Below are positions 1-8,742 of a stretch of DNA of 9,671 nt, one piece after another (the stretch's first letter is position 1; the number at the start of each line of letters is the position of its first letter). The notes under the pieces were generated by a model. That model saw only the letters and a list, made by a program, of their open reading frames with translations. It did not search any database and was not told where the DNA came from. Both the position numbers and the translations under genes were made by a program. The stretch is taken from the IMG/VR virus record IMGVR_UViG_2690316099_000017. One strand, 5' to 3'. This stretch comes from a virus. Lineage: Duplodnaviria > Heunggongvirae > Uroviricota > Caudoviricetes.

Positions 1-15
1 ACACTAAATCAGTAA

Positions 16-528
16 GTTGGCAGCATCACCGGGGGCGCAGACCCTGATTATGTTATCTGGGCGAAAGAAGTTCAGGGTATTAACCGTGCATGGACTTTCA
101 GACACTGGAAAGGCACTGGAACGGTTGGCGTGATGGTGGCGACAAACGATCCGGAACGCCCGGCCCCGGATGAAAGCGTGATTAACGCAGTCAGGGACCA
201 CATCCTTCCTCTGGCACCTGTTGCCGGAAGCGGATTGTATGTATTCGGTGCCACAGAAAAAGTCATCCCGATGACGATTGCATTATCGAAAGACACACCG
301 CAGATCAGGACTGCAATAAAAGCAGAGCTGAATGCACTGATGTTACGGGATGGTGTGCCAGAGGGGCGTATGTATCTGTCCAGAATCAGTGAGGCCATCA
401 GTTTGTCTGCTGGTGAAGTGGCCCACCGGTTAATCGTCCCTTCATCGGATATTGACCTGGGGGAGACCGAGCTTCCGGTGCTCGGCGAGATCACCTGGCA
501 GGCTTATGACCCGGCAAGGAGTAAATAA
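16..528 (+). CDS. Baseplate J-like protein (Mu gp47 / P2 gpJ family), 3' portion only; upstream continuation blocked by in-frame TAA at 13-15
   Basis: Frame 1 is open from 16 to TAA at 526-528. The translation (…VQGINRAW…GTGTVGVMVATNDPERP…LGEITWQAYDPARSK) reads like a baseplate J C-terminal region, and it sits directly upstream of a gp48/DUF2313-like gene as in Mu/e14-type tail clusters. The internal GTG at 130 is the ORF-track start but gives a product too short for this family. Stop overlaps the next start (TAATG). Confidence 0.55.
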   Translation, partial: VGSITGGADPDYVIWAKEVQGINRAWTFRHWKGTGTVGVMVATNDPERPAPDESVINAVRDHILPLAPVAGSGLYVFGATEKVIPMTIALSKDTPQIRTAIKAELNALMLRDGVPEGRMYLSRISEAISLSAGEVAHRLIVPSSDIDLGETELPVLGEITWQAYDPARSK

Positions 529-1118
529 TGGATTCGTTACAGGATGATTATACAAAGCTGCTGTACGGACTGATGCCGCCGGGGCCTGCATGGTCAGATA
601 CCGACGGTGTACTTGACGGTCTGGCACCATCGCTTGTGCGTGTTCACCAGCGGGCTGATGAACTGGTGATTGAAATCGATCCCGGTCAGTCCACAGAGCT
701 GATTGAACGTTATGAAGAATTGTATGGTTTACCTGATTCCTGTTCCCCTGTCGGAACCCAGACATTACGCCAGCGTCAGCAACGTCTTGAAGCAAAAGCC
801 AATGTGGCTGGTGGCATAAATGAGCAGTTCTTCCTGGATCAGCTTGAGGCGCTGGGATATACCGGCGTAACGATCGAACAGTTCCAGCACTTGGATGCAA
901 GCCCCGATCCGGAATGGGGAGATCGCTGGCGTTATTTCTGGCGTGTGACGTTGCCGATGGATGCCGGTGCTCAGTGGCAGACATGCACGGACGCCTGCAA
1001 CACACCGATCCGGACGTGGGGGGATACGGTTGCGGAGTGCGTGATTAATAAATTATGTCCGTCACACACCGTCGTTTTATTTTCCTATCCAGATGAGGAT
1101 GAAGATGCACAGGATTGA
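528..1118 (+). CDS. Phage tail protein, DUF2313 / Mu gp48-like (YmfQ-like)
   Basis: 196-aa ORF with ATG at 528 overlapping the upstream stop (TAATG) and AAGGAG at 516-521 six nt upstream. Size and position between the J-like gene and the tail fiber match the gp48/YmfQ family; acidic C-terminus (…YPDEDEDAQD). Confidence 0.65.
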   Translation: MDSLQDDYTKLLYGLMPPGPAWSDTDGVLDGLAPSLVRVHQRADELVIEIDPGQSTELIERYEELYGLPDSCSPVGTQTLRQRQQRLEAKANVAGGINEQFFLDQLEALGYTGVTIEQFQHLDASPDPEWGDRWRYFWRVTLPMDAGAQWQTCTDACNTPIRTWGDTVAECVINKLCPSHTVVLFSYPDEDEDAQD

Positions 1119-2145
1119 TACGCTGACTGCGGTAAAAGATAAGTTTGGTCCGGGTAAGAACGGATTTACTGACGGAAATCTTCGCACAGGACGTCTTGCT
1201 ACCTGGCTGAACAGTGCCATGTGGAATGCCATTCAGGAGGAAATCTGTGGTGTCATTGAGAAGGCCGGGATAGAACTGAATAAAGAAGAACACGACCAGC
1301 TATATAAGGCTATATTATTGCTGGTGGGCGGTGCAATTAACGAAGAGGCATTGCTGATAAAAAATAACCTTTCGGATGTGGAAGACAGGGATGAGGCTGT
1401 TGAAAACCTCGGATTAAAACCCACGGTGGATAAGGCAAAAAATGCCGTTCAGCGTGATGGCGACACCATGACCGGAGAGCTGAAAATCCGTGGTGTTAAT
1501 GCGCTGAGGATTTTCAACGAAGCTTTTGGCCTGATTTTTCGTCGTTCGGAAGAGTGCCTGCACCTTATTCCCACCAGTGAAGGTCAGGGGGAAAATGGCG
1601 ATATTGGTCCCCTGCGCCCGTTCACCATTAATCTGCGGACGGGTGAAATATCCATGTCGCATAAAGTGTCTGTTGGCGGTGGTTCGCAGGTCAATGGTGC
1701 GCTGGGTATCGGCGTTCAGAACGCCCTGGGGGGGAATTCAATTGTTCTTGGTGATAATGACACCGGATTCAAACAGAATGGTGATGGCCTGCTGGATGTT
1801 TATGCCAATAGCGTGCATGTGTTGCGTTTTCAGAGTGGCAGTATCCAGAGTAATAAAGCTGTAAACGTTACAGGACGGGTAACACCGTCAGACTACGGAA
1901 ACTTTGATGCCCGTTACCAGCAGCGAAATGGTGGCGTGCAGGATGTGCGGTATGGTTATGAAATGTATTACACCCCCGGCAGTAACACCGTTTCGTGGAC
2001 ATTTCGCTCACCTTCGGGACACGGGCTGTCAGGGATATCGATATCGGATACCGGCCGTAACTCAGCGGATAACGTCAACGGCGTGTATTACCGACCGCTG
2101 CAAAAACTGATTAATGGCACCTGGTATAACGTAGCGAGTATTTAA
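1105..2145 (+). CDS. Phage tail fiber protein with P2 gpH-like C-terminal region
   Basis: The ORF is open from 1093; the ATG at 1105 is preferred because GAGGA lies at 1095-1099, five nt upstream. The C-terminal part (…NALGGNSIVLGDNDTGFKQNGDGLLDVYANS…GNFDARY…RPLQKLINGTWYNVASI) closely resembles the P2 gpH / lambdoid tail fiber C-terminus as I remember it; the N-terminus carries an ATWLN…QEEI motif seen in tail-fiber N-termini. Confidence 0.8.
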   Translation: MHRIDTLTAVKDKFGPGKNGFTDGNLRTGRLATWLNSAMWNAIQEEICGVIEKAGIELNKEEHDQLYKAILLLVGGAINEEALLIKNNLSDVEDRDEAVENLGLKPTVDKAKNAVQRDGDTMTGELKIRGVNALRIFNEAFGLIFRRSEECLHLIPTSEGQGENGDIGPLRPFTINLRTGEISMSHKVSVGGGSQVNGALGIGVQNALGGNSIVLGDNDTGFKQNGDGLLDVYANSVHVLRFQSGSIQSNKAVNVTGRVTPSDYGNFDARYQQRNGGVQDVRYGYEMYYTPGSNTVSWTFRSPSGHGLSGISISDTGRNSADNVNGVYYRPLQKLINGTWYNVASI

Positions 2146-2147
2146 CA

Positions 2148-2693
2148 ATGTTGCATTTAAAAAATATTACGGCAGGTAATCCGAAAACCGCGGAATAATA
2201 TCAGCTGACAAAACAGTATGATGTCACCTGGCTTTTTTCGGAAGACGGCAAAAACTGGTATGAAGAACAGAAGAACTTTGCCAGTGACACCATAAAAATG
2301 GTTTACACCGGAGACGGGCGCGTGGTGTGGGTCGGTAAGGATGTGACAGGCATTGAACCCCGTAACGCCAGTGTTATTGAAGTTCCTGATATTACCGCCA
2401 ACCGCCGCATTACCGCGCCGGGTTACTGGTTTTACCGCAATGATGAATTTGTCTTTGACTACAGACTCAAAGCGGAAGATGAGCGTGATGCCCTTCTGGC
2501 TCAGGTCAGTGCCCGGACAGGGGAATGGGAAGAAGACCTGCTGCTGGGGCTAATCAGCGACGAAGACCGGGAAAAACTGAAAGCGTACCGTATTTACGCG
2601 AAATCGCTGCAGGCGATGGATTTCAGCACCATCACTGATAAATCCTCATATAACGCCATTGAATGGTCCGTCTCTCCGGAAGGTTCTTCCTGA
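2148..2693 (+). pseudogene. Tail fiber assembly protein (TfaR/TfaE family) interrupted by in-frame ochre stop at codon 17 (TAA 2196-2198)
   Basis: ATG at 2148 gives MLHLKNITAGNPKTAE, then TAA, then the same frame continues as YQLTKQYDVTWLFSEDGKNWYEEQKNF…VIEVPDITANRR… to TGA 2691-2693. Family members read …KTKEQYQLTK… here, so GAA-TAA corresponds to E-Q (CAA) in homologs. The first in-frame ATG after the stop is at 2298. Confidence 0.75.
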
Positions 2694-2716
2694 TTTAATT
2701 TATCGCGAGAAAAACT

Positions 2717-3985
2717 ATGTCTGTAGTGATATCAGGTGCGCTGACTGATGGCGCAGGCATCCCCATGTCCGGATGCCAGATTATTCTGAAATCCCGTGTA
2801 AACACCTCAGAAGTGGTGATGCGTACCAGGGCTGATGTAGTGACCGGAAATAACGGTGAATATTCGTTTGAGGCACAGGTCGGAAAATATTGCGTGTATC
2901 TGAAACGGGACTGGCGCGACGAGTACTGTGTTGGCGACATTGCTGTATACGACGACTCAAAGCCCGGCACGCTGAATGACTTTCTGATTGCTCCTGATGA
3001 GGGCGACCTGAAACCGGATGTCGTCAAACGCTTTGAGGAAATGGTGGCGCAGGCGCAGCAGAGCGCCGGGGCCGCAGCCGGAAACGCACAGCAGACGGCG
3101 CAGGATGTGGCGGCAGCCGCAGGTTATGCCCGCGCAGCAGAGCAGGCCAAAAATGACATTGATGCTGCGCTGACCGGCACTCTGAAAACGGCTAACCATC
3201 TGTCTGAAATCGCAGCAGCAGGCGAAAAGGCACAACAGAAGTCCCGGGATAATCTGGGGCTGAAAAGTGCGGCCACGATGGAAGCACAGAGCGACATTTA
3301 CGACCGGACAAAAGGCCGTCTGGCGATACCCGGCGCATTCGGCTTTGGGTGTGCTTTTCTGCCTGAAGATGTTATCCGTTTTGACACTAAGAGTGATTTC
3401 CTGGCCTGGGTAAGGAATGCGCTGCCAGGTGAATATTCCGTTGCTGGCCCCTACGACATCATCATACCCGACACACGGTTTGAAGGGGTGCTCAGCATCC
3501 GGTGGACTGATGCACGCCCTGAGACAACAGAACCGAGGTACAGAGCCAAATCCCTTACTTTTTACGGCATTAACGGCCCCATTTATCACACCCGCTACTG
3601 CTACTGGCCCATATCCAGACTGACTGGCTGGGTGAAAATAAATATAACCACAGAAGATATTATTTACAGAATCGTGGCGAGCTCTGTCTGCAACAGATGG
3701 GGAGACCCTGACATTGGCGGGCTGATTATTGCTGCGTACCAGGGAGAAGCTGACGGTGATAAAGTCATCAGACTTGTCAGGGGGCAGTCATACAGAGGCT
3801 CACGACTGGGACCGGTGGGGATTTCAGTGCCCAGTACTCCCACCGGAACGTATATAGCATCCCCACAATTTTTCATTACGGGATGTTCAGAGCATTCATT
3901 ACCGGGGTCATATAGCGCCCTGTCCGGGGTGCCGGATGCTCATGTCTCTGGCGCAATGCCCGGGCTTTTTATTCGCACATCGTGA
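2717..3985 (+). CDS. Side tail fiber protein, lambda Stf-like N-terminal domain with Ala/Gln-rich linker and a divergent C-terminal domain
   Basis: 422-aa ORF. The N-terminus (MSVVISGALTDGAGIPMSGCQIILKSR…VYDDSKPGTLNDFL…) parallels the lambda Stf / StfR N-terminus (MAVKISGVLKDGTGKPVQNCTIQLKAR…VYEDSQPGTLNDFL). This is followed by an alanine-rich segment (…QQSAGAAAGNAQQTAQDVAAAAGYARAAEQAKNDIDAAL…) and a roughly 200-aa Cys-containing C-terminal region that I do not recognise. Confidence 0.75.
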   Translation: MSVVISGALTDGAGIPMSGCQIILKSRVNTSEVVMRTRADVVTGNNGEYSFEAQVGKYCVYLKRDWRDEYCVGDIAVYDDSKPGTLNDFLIAPDEGDLKPDVVKRFEEMVAQAQQSAGAAAGNAQQTAQDVAAAAGYARAAEQAKNDIDAALTGTLKTANHLSEIAAAGEKAQQKSRDNLGLKSAATMEAQSDIYDRTKGRLAIPGAFGFGCAFLPEDVIRFDTKSDFLAWVRNALPGEYSVAGPYDIIIPDTRFEGVLSIRWTDARPETTEPRYRAKSLTFYGINGPIYHTRYCYWPISRLTGWVKINITTEDIIYRIVASSVCNRWGDPDIGGLIIAAYQGEADGDKVIRLVRGQSYRGSRLGPVGISVPSTPTGTYIASPQFFITGCSEHSLPGSYSALSGVPDAHVSGAMPGLFIRTS

Positions 3986-3995
3986 GGAATGCACC

Positions 3996-4559
3996 GTGGA
4001 AATTAAAAAAATCATTAATCCCCGTTATACCGAAAGTGGCGCAGTAGACTGTGACGTTTTTTTTGACGACAGGGACCAGGCAGTCCCCTACACAGCCACC
4101 GCTGATGATGTCGCACCGACGGGTCAGCGAATCTGGCAGGAACTGCAAAGTGGCAAATGGGGTGAGATAGCCCCATTCACTGTGACACCAGAAATGCTGG
4201 AAGCGGCCAGAGAGGCCAGACGTCAGGAAATTGAAGCATGGCGCACAGAACAGGAGGCGAAGCCGTTCACGTTTGAATGGAACGGTCGTATCTGGAATGC
4301 TGGCCCCAACTCACTGGGCCGCCTTTATCCGGTGGTAATGGCTGCGAAATCCGACATTGTACGGGACGTGATGACGTGGGGTGATGCCGATAATCAGCAG
4401 GTGAAACTGTCGATGCCGGAACTGGAAGAACTGGCGGCAGCAATGGCTCAGGCACAGGTTGAGCGCAATGACGAGATTTATCGCCGTCAGCGGGAGCTGA
4501 AGGAAGAGCTGAATAGTCTGAAGGATTTGAATTCGGTTAGGAATTTTATCGTGGAATAA
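3996..4559 (+). CDS. Putative tail fiber chaperone / assembly-like protein (DUF4376-like), phage accessory
   Basis: The ORF is open from 3936 but a GTG at 3996 has GAGGAA at 3984-3989, six nt upstream, and begins just after the Stf stop (3983-3985). The C-terminal half (…FEWNGRIWNAGPNSLGRL…WGDADNQQVKLSMPELEELAAAMAQAQVERNDEIYRRQRELKEEL…) resembles small proteins encoded downstream of prophage tail fibers. Family assignment is from memory and not certain. Confidence 0.5.
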   Translation: MEIKKIINPRYTESGAVDCDVFFDDRDQAVPYTATADDVAPTGQRIWQELQSGKWGEIAPFTVTPEMLEAAREARRQEIEAWRTEQEAKPFTFEWNGRIWNAGPNSLGRLYPVVMAAKSDIVRDVMTWGDADNQQVKLSMPELEELAAAMAQAQVERNDEIYRRQRELKEELNSLKDLNSVRNFIVE

Positions 4560-5617: not shown

Positions 5618-6506
5618 GAGCGATCCTCCAGCGCTTTATGCGCACGCCGACGATTTGCCAAAAGTCCATGGGTGGGCGCAAATACAAATGCTAAAAGAAA
5701 CAGCAGTGTCTGCGCCACCACGATGATTCCACCTGTCGCGCCGTCCAGAAAGTAACTGACCCACGCGCCGAGGAAACTGGTTACACTGCCAATAGTTACA
5801 GCAATTATGAGCAGGCGGGGAAAACGATCGGTTAACAACCATGCTGTTGCACCGGGAGTCACCACCAGACAGATCACCAGAAAGGCACCAACCGTTTGCA
5901 GCGCCGCAACGGTCGAAACCGACAGCAGGGTGAAGAAGAGGATTTTTAATCTGCCCGGATGTAATCCAATAGCACGGGCGTGATTCTCGTCGAAAAAGGT
6001 CACCATAAGATCTTTCCATTTGAAAAAAAGCACGATGATCGAGAGAATGCCAATGATAGTGAGTTGCAGGATATCCGCCGGATCGATTGCCAGAATATTG
6101 CCCAGGACGATGGTCTGAATGTTCACGGATGTCGGGTTCAATGACACCATAAACAGCCCCAGGCCAAAAAAGGACGAGAAGATCAGGCCGATGATGGCAT
6201 CTTCTTTTAAGCGGGTGCGTTGGTTAAGAAACAGCATGCTGCCCGCTGCCAGTCCGCCGGAAAAGAAGGCTCCCAGAGAAAACGGAAGCCCCAGCATATA
6301 TGCCCCCGCAACACCCGGGACAATAGAGTGCGACNNNNNNNNNNNNNNNNNNNNNNNNNNNNNNNNNNNNGCGCATCGCCAATCAGCGACCAGCCTTTTA
6401 GCATCAGATAGCATGACAGGAAAGCGCAGAGACCGCCGACCATTGCCGAGACCCACATCGCATTGAGCATATATTCATAGCTGAAGGGTTCCAGTAGCAC
6501 GTTCAT
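5614..6506 (-). CDS. sitC: Mn/Fe ABC transporter permease SitC (interrupted by N run 6335-6370; frame not conserved across the run)
   Basis: The start ATG at 6506-6504 (MNVLLEPFSYEYMLNAMW…LKGWSLIGDA) lies in one frame; after the N run the protein continues (SHSIVPGVAGAYMLGLPF… to TGA 5616-5614) in a different frame. It is paralogous to SitD along its whole length. Confidence 0.85.
6335..6370. other. N run 1 (36 nt) inside sitC
   Basis: Unresolved bases; flanking codons imply the true length is 1 mod 3, so the run length is not faithful or the gene is disrupted. Confidence 0.95.
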
Positions 6507-6508
6507 CT

Positions 6509-6552
6509 NNNNNNNNNNNNNNNNNNNNNNNNNNNNNNNNNNNNNNNNNNNN
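6509..6552. other. N run 2 (44 nt) covering the sitB 3' end and the sitB-sitC junction
   Basis: Unresolved bases; the sitB stop and the sitC ribosome-binding site must lie inside. Confidence 0.95.
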
Positions 6553-7361: not shown

Positions 7362-7986
7362 TATTTCTCCCTTTTCCCGGCTTTAATTCCCTGTACCAGC
7401 GTACTGGTAGTAACCTTAAGAAGGTCGATATACGTAGGTACCGGGCCGTTTTCTGTGCTCAGGGAATCGACATAGAGCACACCGCCGTAGTGTGCGCCGG
7501 TTTCACGCGCAACCTGACGCGCTGGTTTATCGGAAATCGTACTCTCGCTAAAGACTGCCGGGATATGATTTTTCTTAACTATATCAACAACCTTACGTAC
7601 CTGCTGCGGTGTTCCTTGTTGATCGGCATTAATCGGCNNNNNNNNNNNNNNNNNNNNNNNNNNNNNNNNNNNNNNNNNNNNNNNNNNNNNNNNNNNNNNN
7701 NNNNNNNNNNNNNNNNNNNNNNNNNNNNNNNNNNNNNNNNNNNNNNNNNNNNNNNNNNNNNNNNNNNNNNNNNNNNNNNNNNNNNNNNNNNNNNNNNNNN
7801 NNNNNNNNNNNNNNNNNNNNNNNNNNNNNNNNNNNNNNNNNNNNNNNNNNNNNNNNNNNNNNNNNNNNNNNNNNNNNNNNNNNNNNNNNNNNNNNNNNNN
7901 NNNNNNNNNNNNNNNNNNNNNNNNNNNNNNNNNNNNNNNNNNNNNNNNNTAAATCAGAGCATTATCTGGCGACATCCATGCATGGG
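7361..7986 (-). CDS. sitA: Periplasmic Mn/Fe-binding protein SitA, 3' portion plus one internal island; 5' end and start masked
   Basis: The readable C-terminal 91 aa (…[60 protein letters not shown]…GKREK, stop TAA 7363-7361) fit the TroA/PsaA/SitA family. The 37-nt island 7950-7986 encodes [11 protein letters not shown] in the same frame, the conserved metal-ligand His motif. The true start lies within or beyond N run 4. Confidence 0.8.
7638..7949. other. N run 3 (312 nt) inside sitA
   Basis: Unresolved bases. Confidence 0.95.
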
Positions 7987-8671
7987 NNNNNNNNNNNNNN
8001 NNNNNNNNNNNNNNNNNNNNNNNNNNNNNNNNNNNNNNNNNNNNNNNNNNNNNNNNNNNNNNNNNNNNNNNNNNNNNNNNNNNNNNNNNNNNNNNNNNNN
8101 NNNNNNNNNNNNNNNNNNNNNNNNNNNNNNNNNNNNNNNNNNNNNNNNNNNNNNNNNNNNNNNNNNNNNNNNNNNNNNNNNNNNNNNNNNNNNNNNNNNN
8201 NNNNNNNNNNNNNNNNNNNNNNNNNNNNNNNNNNNNNNNNNNNNNNNNNNNNNNNNNNNNNNNNNNNNNNNNNNNNNNNNNNNNNNNNNNNNNNNNNNNN
8301 NNNNNNNNNNNNNNNNNNNNNNNNNNNNNNNNNNNNNNNNNNNNNNNNNNNNNNNNNNNNNNNNNNNNNNNNNNNNNNNNNNNNNNNNNNNNNNNNNNNN
8401 NNNNNNNNNNNNNNNNNNNNNNNNNNNNNNNNNNNNNNNNNNNNNNNNNNNNNNNNNNNNNNNNNNNNNNNNNNNNNNNNNNNNNNNNNNNNNNNNNNNN
8501 NNNNNNNNNNNNNNNNNNNNNNNNNNNNNNNNNNNNNNNNNNNNNNNNNNNNNNNNNNNNNNNNNNNNNNNNNNNNNNNNNNNNNNNNNNNNNNNNNNNN
8601 NNNNNNNNNNNNNNNNNNNNNNNNNNNNNNNNNNNNNNNNNNNNNNNNNNNNNNNNNNNNNNNNNNNNNNN
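7987..8671. other. N run 4 (685 nt) covering the sitA 5' region and probably its start and part of its promoter
   Basis: Unresolved bases. If lengths were faithful, sitA would extend to 438 aa from the ATG at 8677, far longer than this family, so the start is inside the run or the run lengths are arbitrary. Confidence 0.95.
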
Positions 8672-8742
8672 CGACATGATATTGAGGAAAAAAGTAGAGC
8701 AGCTATTAGGCTTTGAAATGACTTTATGAGGAAAATTGTTGA

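Follow-up and report, generated by a model that had tools for sequence, protein, structure and literature searches.

We analyzed a 9,671-nucleotide stretch of phage-derived DNA (IMG/VR record IMGVR_UViG_2690316099_000017; here called the window). The window opens with the terminal 30 nt of an IS1 element (1 to 30), which is inserted in a baseplate J gene and has no match to the intact baseplate J gene of the prophage locus L001. The 3' fragment of this baseplate J/gp47-like gene follows on the plus strand (31 to 528; 165 codons), with the Pfam Baseplate_J match on 130 to 528. It is succeeded, also on the plus strand, by an intact gene for a Mu gp48-like baseplate protein (528 to 1118; 196 aa, the length found in intact relatives; Pfam PF10076, 89.6 bits), tail fiber gene 1 (1105 to 2145; 346 aa, with a weak gp37_trimer match), whose product is the presumed client of Tfa, and the tail fiber assembly gene tfa (2148 to 2693). 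Downstream lie tail fiber gene 2 (2717 to 3985; 422 aa, plus strand), which is intact and has a lambda Stf-like N terminus (Pfam PF08400, 212.6 bits), and a DUF4376 gene (3936 to 4559; 207 aa, plus strand; Pfam PF14301), the probable chaperone of fiber 2. The fiber 2 protein was identical on 674 Shigella sonnei contigs. After 4559, sitD, sitC, sitB, sitA, and uspF lie on the minus strand.

The tfa gene sits directly downstream of a tail fiber gene, as it does in its relatives: the stop codon of fiber gene 1 (TAA) occupies 2143 to 2145, and tfa begins with an ATG at 2148. Its frame, of the Mu U/P2 G type of tail fiber assembly chaperone, comprises 182 codons, that is, 181 and the terminal TGA at 2691 to 2693. 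It contains a single internal stop, an ochre codon (TAA) at 2196 to 2198, which is codon 17, and the remainder is open. The uninterrupted frame of about 175 to 181 codons that is expected of Caudo_TAP chaperones is not found here; the in-frame stop occupies a codon that is sense in all homologs, and the rest of the gene is colinear with theirs. Since the frame is interrupted at codon 17, the gene is, as far as its sequence tells, a pseudogene of the Mu U/P2 G family and not a functional member. Past the TAA, the earliest in-frame ATG, GTG, or TTG is the ATG at 2298 (codon 51), from which a residual ORF of 131 aa runs to 2693 on the plus strand; it is AAZ89357.1 of S. sonnei Ss046. Gene callers also start the remnant at a CTG at 2205 (162 aa, the start in NCBI's call) or at a GTG at 2322 (123 aa).

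All relatives examined have CAA at codon 17, as was first seen in four of them. Using an exact look-up, we found that an intact tfa allele (P0047; 181 aa, with Gln17 and the other 180 residues identical) is present on 18 contigs. When 10 of these loci were fetched, the 546-nt gene differed from that of the window at one position in nine of them, namely 2196, which is C there and T in the window. A C-to-T transition at 2196 has turned Gln17 (CAA) into the ochre codon. The original prediction, which was made from the letters of the window, had described a tfa frame that is whole except for the TAA, a glutamine expected at codon 17, a single CAA-to-TAA change as the cause, and a loss of about 50 residues upon a restart at the ATG at 2298. 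An existing intact allele one nucleotide away bears out the first of these claims, and the lone difference at 2196 bears out the single change. The glutamine proved to be conserved without exception in close relatives as well as in Mu U/U', P1 U', P2, and SEN8, and the ATG at 2298 is indeed the first canonical in-frame start, with 50 residues lost.

With codon 17 read as glutamine, the repaired 181-aa Tfa matched Pfam PF02413 (Caudo_TAP) with 87.7 bits, the cutoff being 22.1, and the match began only at residue 40. The 131-aa residual ORF also matches PF02413 among precomputed hits. The repaired protein aligned over residues 1 to 158 with chain B of PDB entry 5YVQ, the Mu tail fiber assembly protein U (E = 8e-39). 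This alignment starts at residue 1 and has Gln at the mutated position; Mu reads NPKTKEQYQLTK where the window has NPKTAE*YQLTK. When 50,697 phage records were searched with tblastn, 173 had a Tfa homolog, including Mu U', P1 U', and P2-like phages, and most of these aligned from query residue 1. A single-sequence AlphaFold2 model of the intact Tfa had a mean pLDDT of 33, too low for the model to be of use.

Conservation was assessed in an alignment of Tfa sequences, which were the intact allele, the copy of Actinobacillus phage vB_Apl-pPE4, one copy from enteroinvasive E. coli (EIEC), Mu U and U', P1 U', a P2 homolog, and SEN8. Gln17 was invariant in this alignment, and 26 of the 47 invariant columns fell within residues 1 to 50. 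Of the invariant N-terminal residues (among them M1, H3, L4, N6, I7, N11, P12, K13, T14, Q17, Y18, Q19, T21, and K22), the window encodes all but Q17. The family therefore does not normally start downstream of the TAA; such a downstream start is what the original prediction had named as fatal to it, but most of the homologs align from residue 1. The segment that is cut off by the stop is, in this alignment, the most conserved part of the Tfa family. The N-domain of Mu Tfa, which is the portion solved in 5YVQ, binds the fiber, with helices α1, α3, and α4 contributing, and the C-terminal helical domain brings about trimerization (PMC9608196).

The Tfa proteins of Mu (U/U'; TfaMu, PDB 5YVQ) and P1 (U') have about 50% identity to the Tfa of the window over residues 1 to 162. 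They share the N-terminal motif M-x-HLKNI...NPKT-x-EQYQLTK, with Gln at the mutated position, and their genes likewise sit directly after a tail fiber gene. They differ in that the tfa gene of the window is interrupted at codon 17 and the C-terminal 25 or so residues are not the same; moreover, the module in the window lies outside any invertible G/C segment, and a second fiber gene and the DUF4376 gene follow in the same orientation. The P2 gpG-type proteins (Peduoviridae) have 43 to 47% identity from residue 1 and the same invariant N-terminal residues, but they belong to another phage backbone, and their genes are intact in those phages. The tfaE, tfaR, tfaD, tfaS, and tfaX genes of E. coli K-12 belong to the same protein family and lie in decaying cryptic prophages, several of them being annotated as pseudogenes. 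These are different prophages with different lesions, whereas the lesion in the window is a single nonsense codon.

The nearest intact versions of the tail module are those of phiP27, vB_Apl-pPE4, and the EIEC prophages of FDAARGOS_944, CFSAN029787, and RMDEC364. They have the gene order of the window (baseplate J, gp48 or DUF2612, fiber 1, tfa, fiber 2, and DUF4376), which occurs in an all-intact version in the EIEC prophages and in vB_Apl-pPE4. The DNA identity of these modules to the window is 89 to 99% over positions 2100 to 2750, the tfa region; unlike the window, they have the CAA codon for Gln17, and the baseplate J gene was whole in those that were checked. In a comparison with window positions 1459 to 3123, the tfa allele of the window was also observed behind different baseplate backbones, at a distance of 1 nt from the window in L060, L061, and L063 and of 5 nt in L059. 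The backbone of L059 is of the DUF2612/Phage_Wedge1 type, and those of the Mu gp48 type have different fiber N termini. Since the same tfa allele stands behind different backbones, a cassette made up of the fiber C terminus, tfa, and the fiber 2 N terminus appears to move between prophages.

We then examined the state of the prophage. Window positions 1 to 30 run on into IS1 in S. sonnei chromosomes and in the draft assemblies L062 and L064, as identified by ORFs matching Pfam DDE_Tnp_IS1 and Zn_ribbon_InsA. In the S. sonnei chromosomes, IS1 parts a 224-aa 5' portion of baseplate J from the 3' portion that opens the window, while the intact protein has 360 aa in L001 and L057. The split of baseplate J by IS1 upholds the earlier suggestion of a decaying, defective prophage. 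The accompanying mention of a possibly truncated J-like gene holds for baseplate J but not for the fiber gene at 1105 to 2145. Truncation of fiber gene 1 was considered and rejected, as its 346-aa form is also found in the intact prophages L057 and L058. Fiber gene 1 is shorter than the allele of EIEC FDAARGOS_944 by an in-frame 168 nt, or 56 codons (window 1838 to 1873 versus 5571 to 5774 of L001), and because the short form occurs in these intact prophages, the difference is allelic length variation and not damage. Most of the complete S. sonnei chromosomes that we examined have a second IS1 called between the tape-measure and DNA-circularization genes of this prophage.

The TAA codon was found in all 10 Logan contigs that encode the 131-aa ORF, which come from several sequencing projects, and in all 10 complete S. 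sonnei chromosomes fetched via the neighboring fiber gene. Ten further complete-genome places were fetched via the 162-aa post-stop ORF, and their DNA matched the window from base 1; all 20 of these complete-chromosome places had the TAA. The 162-aa post-stop ORF, indexed in 2,404 blocks, is carried by at least 1,000 contigs, compared with 18 for the intact allele. The source names of the exact products are those of S. sonnei, the 131-aa ORF of Ss046 being also UniRef Q3YYQ5. Whether other isolates carry CAA had been put forward as a check with the original prediction: TAA dominates, and CAA is found in the intact allele on 18 contigs and in relatives. A 43-nt pattern spanning the codon, with its variable base left as N, had no match in the GTDB species-representative genomes, in which Shigella is presumably not separately represented.

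Every complete S. sonnei chromosome examined has the TAA-bearing tfa gene in a prophage that adjoins smpB, and some of these chromosomes have a further prophage inserted beside it. We looked for a second TAA-bearing copy in each complete S. sonnei genome, and the smpB-adjacent place alone was returned.

The draft assemblies L062 and L064 have the identical IS1/baseplate J junction and match the window at 99.9% identity across 3 kb, yet they carry CAA at codon 17. Because the junction occurs together with CAA, the simplest order of events would be an IS1 insertion that was followed by the stop mutation. IS1 had killed the prophage beforehand, so that the stop results from the decay of the prophage and did not bring it about.

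Taken together, these results make it highly probable that the window carries a tfa pseudogene of a cryptic Mu-like/P27-like myovirus prophage of S. sonnei, in which a C-to-T change created the stop after the IS1 insertion and the stop then spread by neutral hitch-hiking. The data show what the mutation is, that it is real, its direction, how widely it has spread, and that it came after IS1, whereas the loss of function and the neutrality are inferred. The IS1 in baseplate J had disabled the prophage before the stop arose. Since the prophage had already been made nonfunctional by IS1, the stop was most likely neutral and would have hitch-hiked to high frequency in the clonal S. sonnei. S. sonnei is highly clonal, and in such a population neutral alleles become fixed by hitch-hiking.

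On the other hand, the near-fixation of the TAA allele could also reflect selection. The loss of Tfa, or a polar effect of the stop on the fiber 2 and DUF4376 genes, may have benefited S. sonnei, and the dominance of the TAA allele is consistent with this: at least 1,000 contigs stand against 18 intact ones, of which only a part have the S. sonnei-type locus. However, the module was already nonfunctional through IS1, and S. flexneri has no matching nonsense mutation, as its codon 17 is CAA. Fixation of pseudogenes within Shigella lineages has been reported, and each Shigella reference genome contains at least 199 pseudogenes that arose from insertion sequences, nonsense mutations, and indels (PMC7373316). 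We consider selection for the stop very improbable. A broader nonneutral reading, which takes in selected loss or polarity as well as gene conversion between the smpB-, ipaH-, and sit-adjacent prophage remnants, is improbable too, if by a slightly lesser degree. If it were true, the same remnants would also drive megabase inversions, such as the one that the hybrid junction of the window (described below) would imply.

Translation entering from the upstream fiber gene would end after 16 residues, and any product of a restart would be devoid of 19 to 58 N-terminal residues of the conserved fiber-binding domain. A working chaperone would not be expected, because the lost residues are the most conserved ones and lie in the fiber-binding domain. 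The contrary view, that an N-terminally shortened yet working chaperone is made by a restart at the CTG at 2205, the ATG at 2298, or the GTG at 2322, draws on the 162-, 131-, and 123-aa ORFs called by annotation pipelines and on the Caudo_TAP model, which starts only at residue 40. The CTG is 7 nt past the stop, which makes termination-reinitiation conceivable, but translation starts very poorly at CTG in E. coli. The ATG at 2298 has no Shine-Dalgarno complementarity (-0.2 kcal/mol). The GTG at 2322 is better placed than this ATG, having a GGAG Shine-Dalgarno sequence with good spacing (-6.6 kcal/mol). Against all three starts stand the 26 of 47 invariant columns in residues 1 to 50, which form part of the fiber-binding N-domain of the solved Mu Tfa, and with baseplate J split by IS1, there would be no tail to use the fiber in any case. 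A functional restart product is thus very unlikely.

There is little to recommend the view that a fault in the sequencing or assembly of one record produced the TAA and the gene is truly intact. The window derives from a short-read draft contig (L069, GCA_001248965.1), and the intact allele is just one base away, but dozens of independent assemblies share the TAA, among them the 10 Logan contigs and the 20 complete-chromosome places, which stem from different projects. At least 1,000 contigs have the post-stop ORF, and the annotation of Ss046 already had the truncated ORF. An error at 2196 to 2198, which the original prediction had named as the finding that would undo it, is extremely unlikely. 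Readthrough or recoding of the stop by a suppressor tRNA or a programmed mechanism, giving a full-length protein, has hardly any probability: our search for support at this TAA found none, no tRNA genes were found in the window, no homolog examined has a stop at codon 17, which argues against a conserved recoding site, and the TAA is followed by T, TAA-T being the most efficient termination signal in E. coli.

The TAA-bearing tfa gene was also found in a second setting. The Logan contigs L005, L006, and L012 carry it and show no difference from the window between about 1973 and 4324, with one SNP at 1972. This copy has an ipaH-type right end, and in L005 a gene with an NEL domain lies downstream. 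The nonsense allele is, on these contigs, present in at least two sequence contexts, which would represent a second copy, recombination, or another lineage. The history of the allele may include recombination between prophage copies.

The biological weight of the finding is small: a pathogen whose genome is known to decay has a further fixed pseudogene in a cryptic prophage. Public annotation has contained the shortened ORF since the Ss046 genome (AAZ89357.1), and it is well documented that cryptic prophage genes of Shigella decay through nonsense mutations. The 162-, 131-, and 123-aa remnants are labeled "tail fiber assembly protein" by annotation pipelines and should be flagged as a pseudogene. 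The C/T difference at 2196, combined with the IS1/baseplate J junction, could be used to tell S. sonnei lineages apart. The window also shows how near-identical prophage remnants can mislead draft assemblies.

The last point concerns the passage from the tail genes to the sit genes. In its unmasked parts, the window is 100% identical to the 20,276-nt draft contig CXDU01000079.1 of GCA_001248965.1 (L069). Its match to the smpB-type copy of the prophage remnant is exact over 1 to 4282, and that to the sit-type copy is exact from 3315 on (from 4283 it follows the sit type alone). Over 3315 to 4282 (968 bp), the smpB- and sit-adjacent copies are identical to each other save for lineage SNPs. Because the match to the smpB type ends at 4282 and that to the sit type starts at 3315, the two halves of the window are joined through this shared stretch. 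In complete S. sonnei genomes, the smpB and sit loci are separate from each other, and the DNA adjacent to sitD has just a fiber 2 fragment, from window position 3315, and the DUF4376 gene, cut off by IS elements. The join of tfa to sit is made by one draft contig only, and sister drafts with the same DUF4376 allele begin exactly at 3315. The adjacency of tfa and sit in the window is therefore probably a mis-join across the 968-bp repeat. Possibly the junction arose from a real inversion between the two copies, which in CP104423.1 are inverted and about 1 Mb apart. The conclusion on the stop codon is unaffected by this caveat.

In S. flexneri, the tfa copies have CAA at codon 17. The 162-aa form of this species (P0003, 524 contigs) was considered as the same stop in a second species and rejected on account of this codon. 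Its short call reflects the choice of start site or, in four complete assemblies, a one-base deletion in the A-run of codons 5 and 6. In these four (L017, L018, L021, and L022), A6 has become A5 at about 3960 in locus coordinates, and the deletion may be a genuine frameshift that puts the start codon out of frame with the gene, or long-read sequencing may have miscounted the homopolymer. IS1 or IS3-family elements were called in the same four assemblies where the upstream fiber gene is expected, and a short 3' ORF remnant of the fiber gene is left before tfa.

The sit region of the window contains several odd ORFs, namely a 384-aa "SitB" fusion, a 438-aa "SitA", and IS1-sized plus-strand ORFs at 7490 to 8716. 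Damage to the sit operon was considered and rejected, the odd ORFs being artefacts of masked N runs (6335 to 6370, 6509 to 6552, 7638 to 7949, and 7987 to 8671). These runs do not preserve length: 36 N stand for 1 nt and 44 N for 13 nt, and L069 has 775 nt in place of the 1,034 nt from 7638 to 8671. Both L069 and the complete genomes have an intact sit operon.
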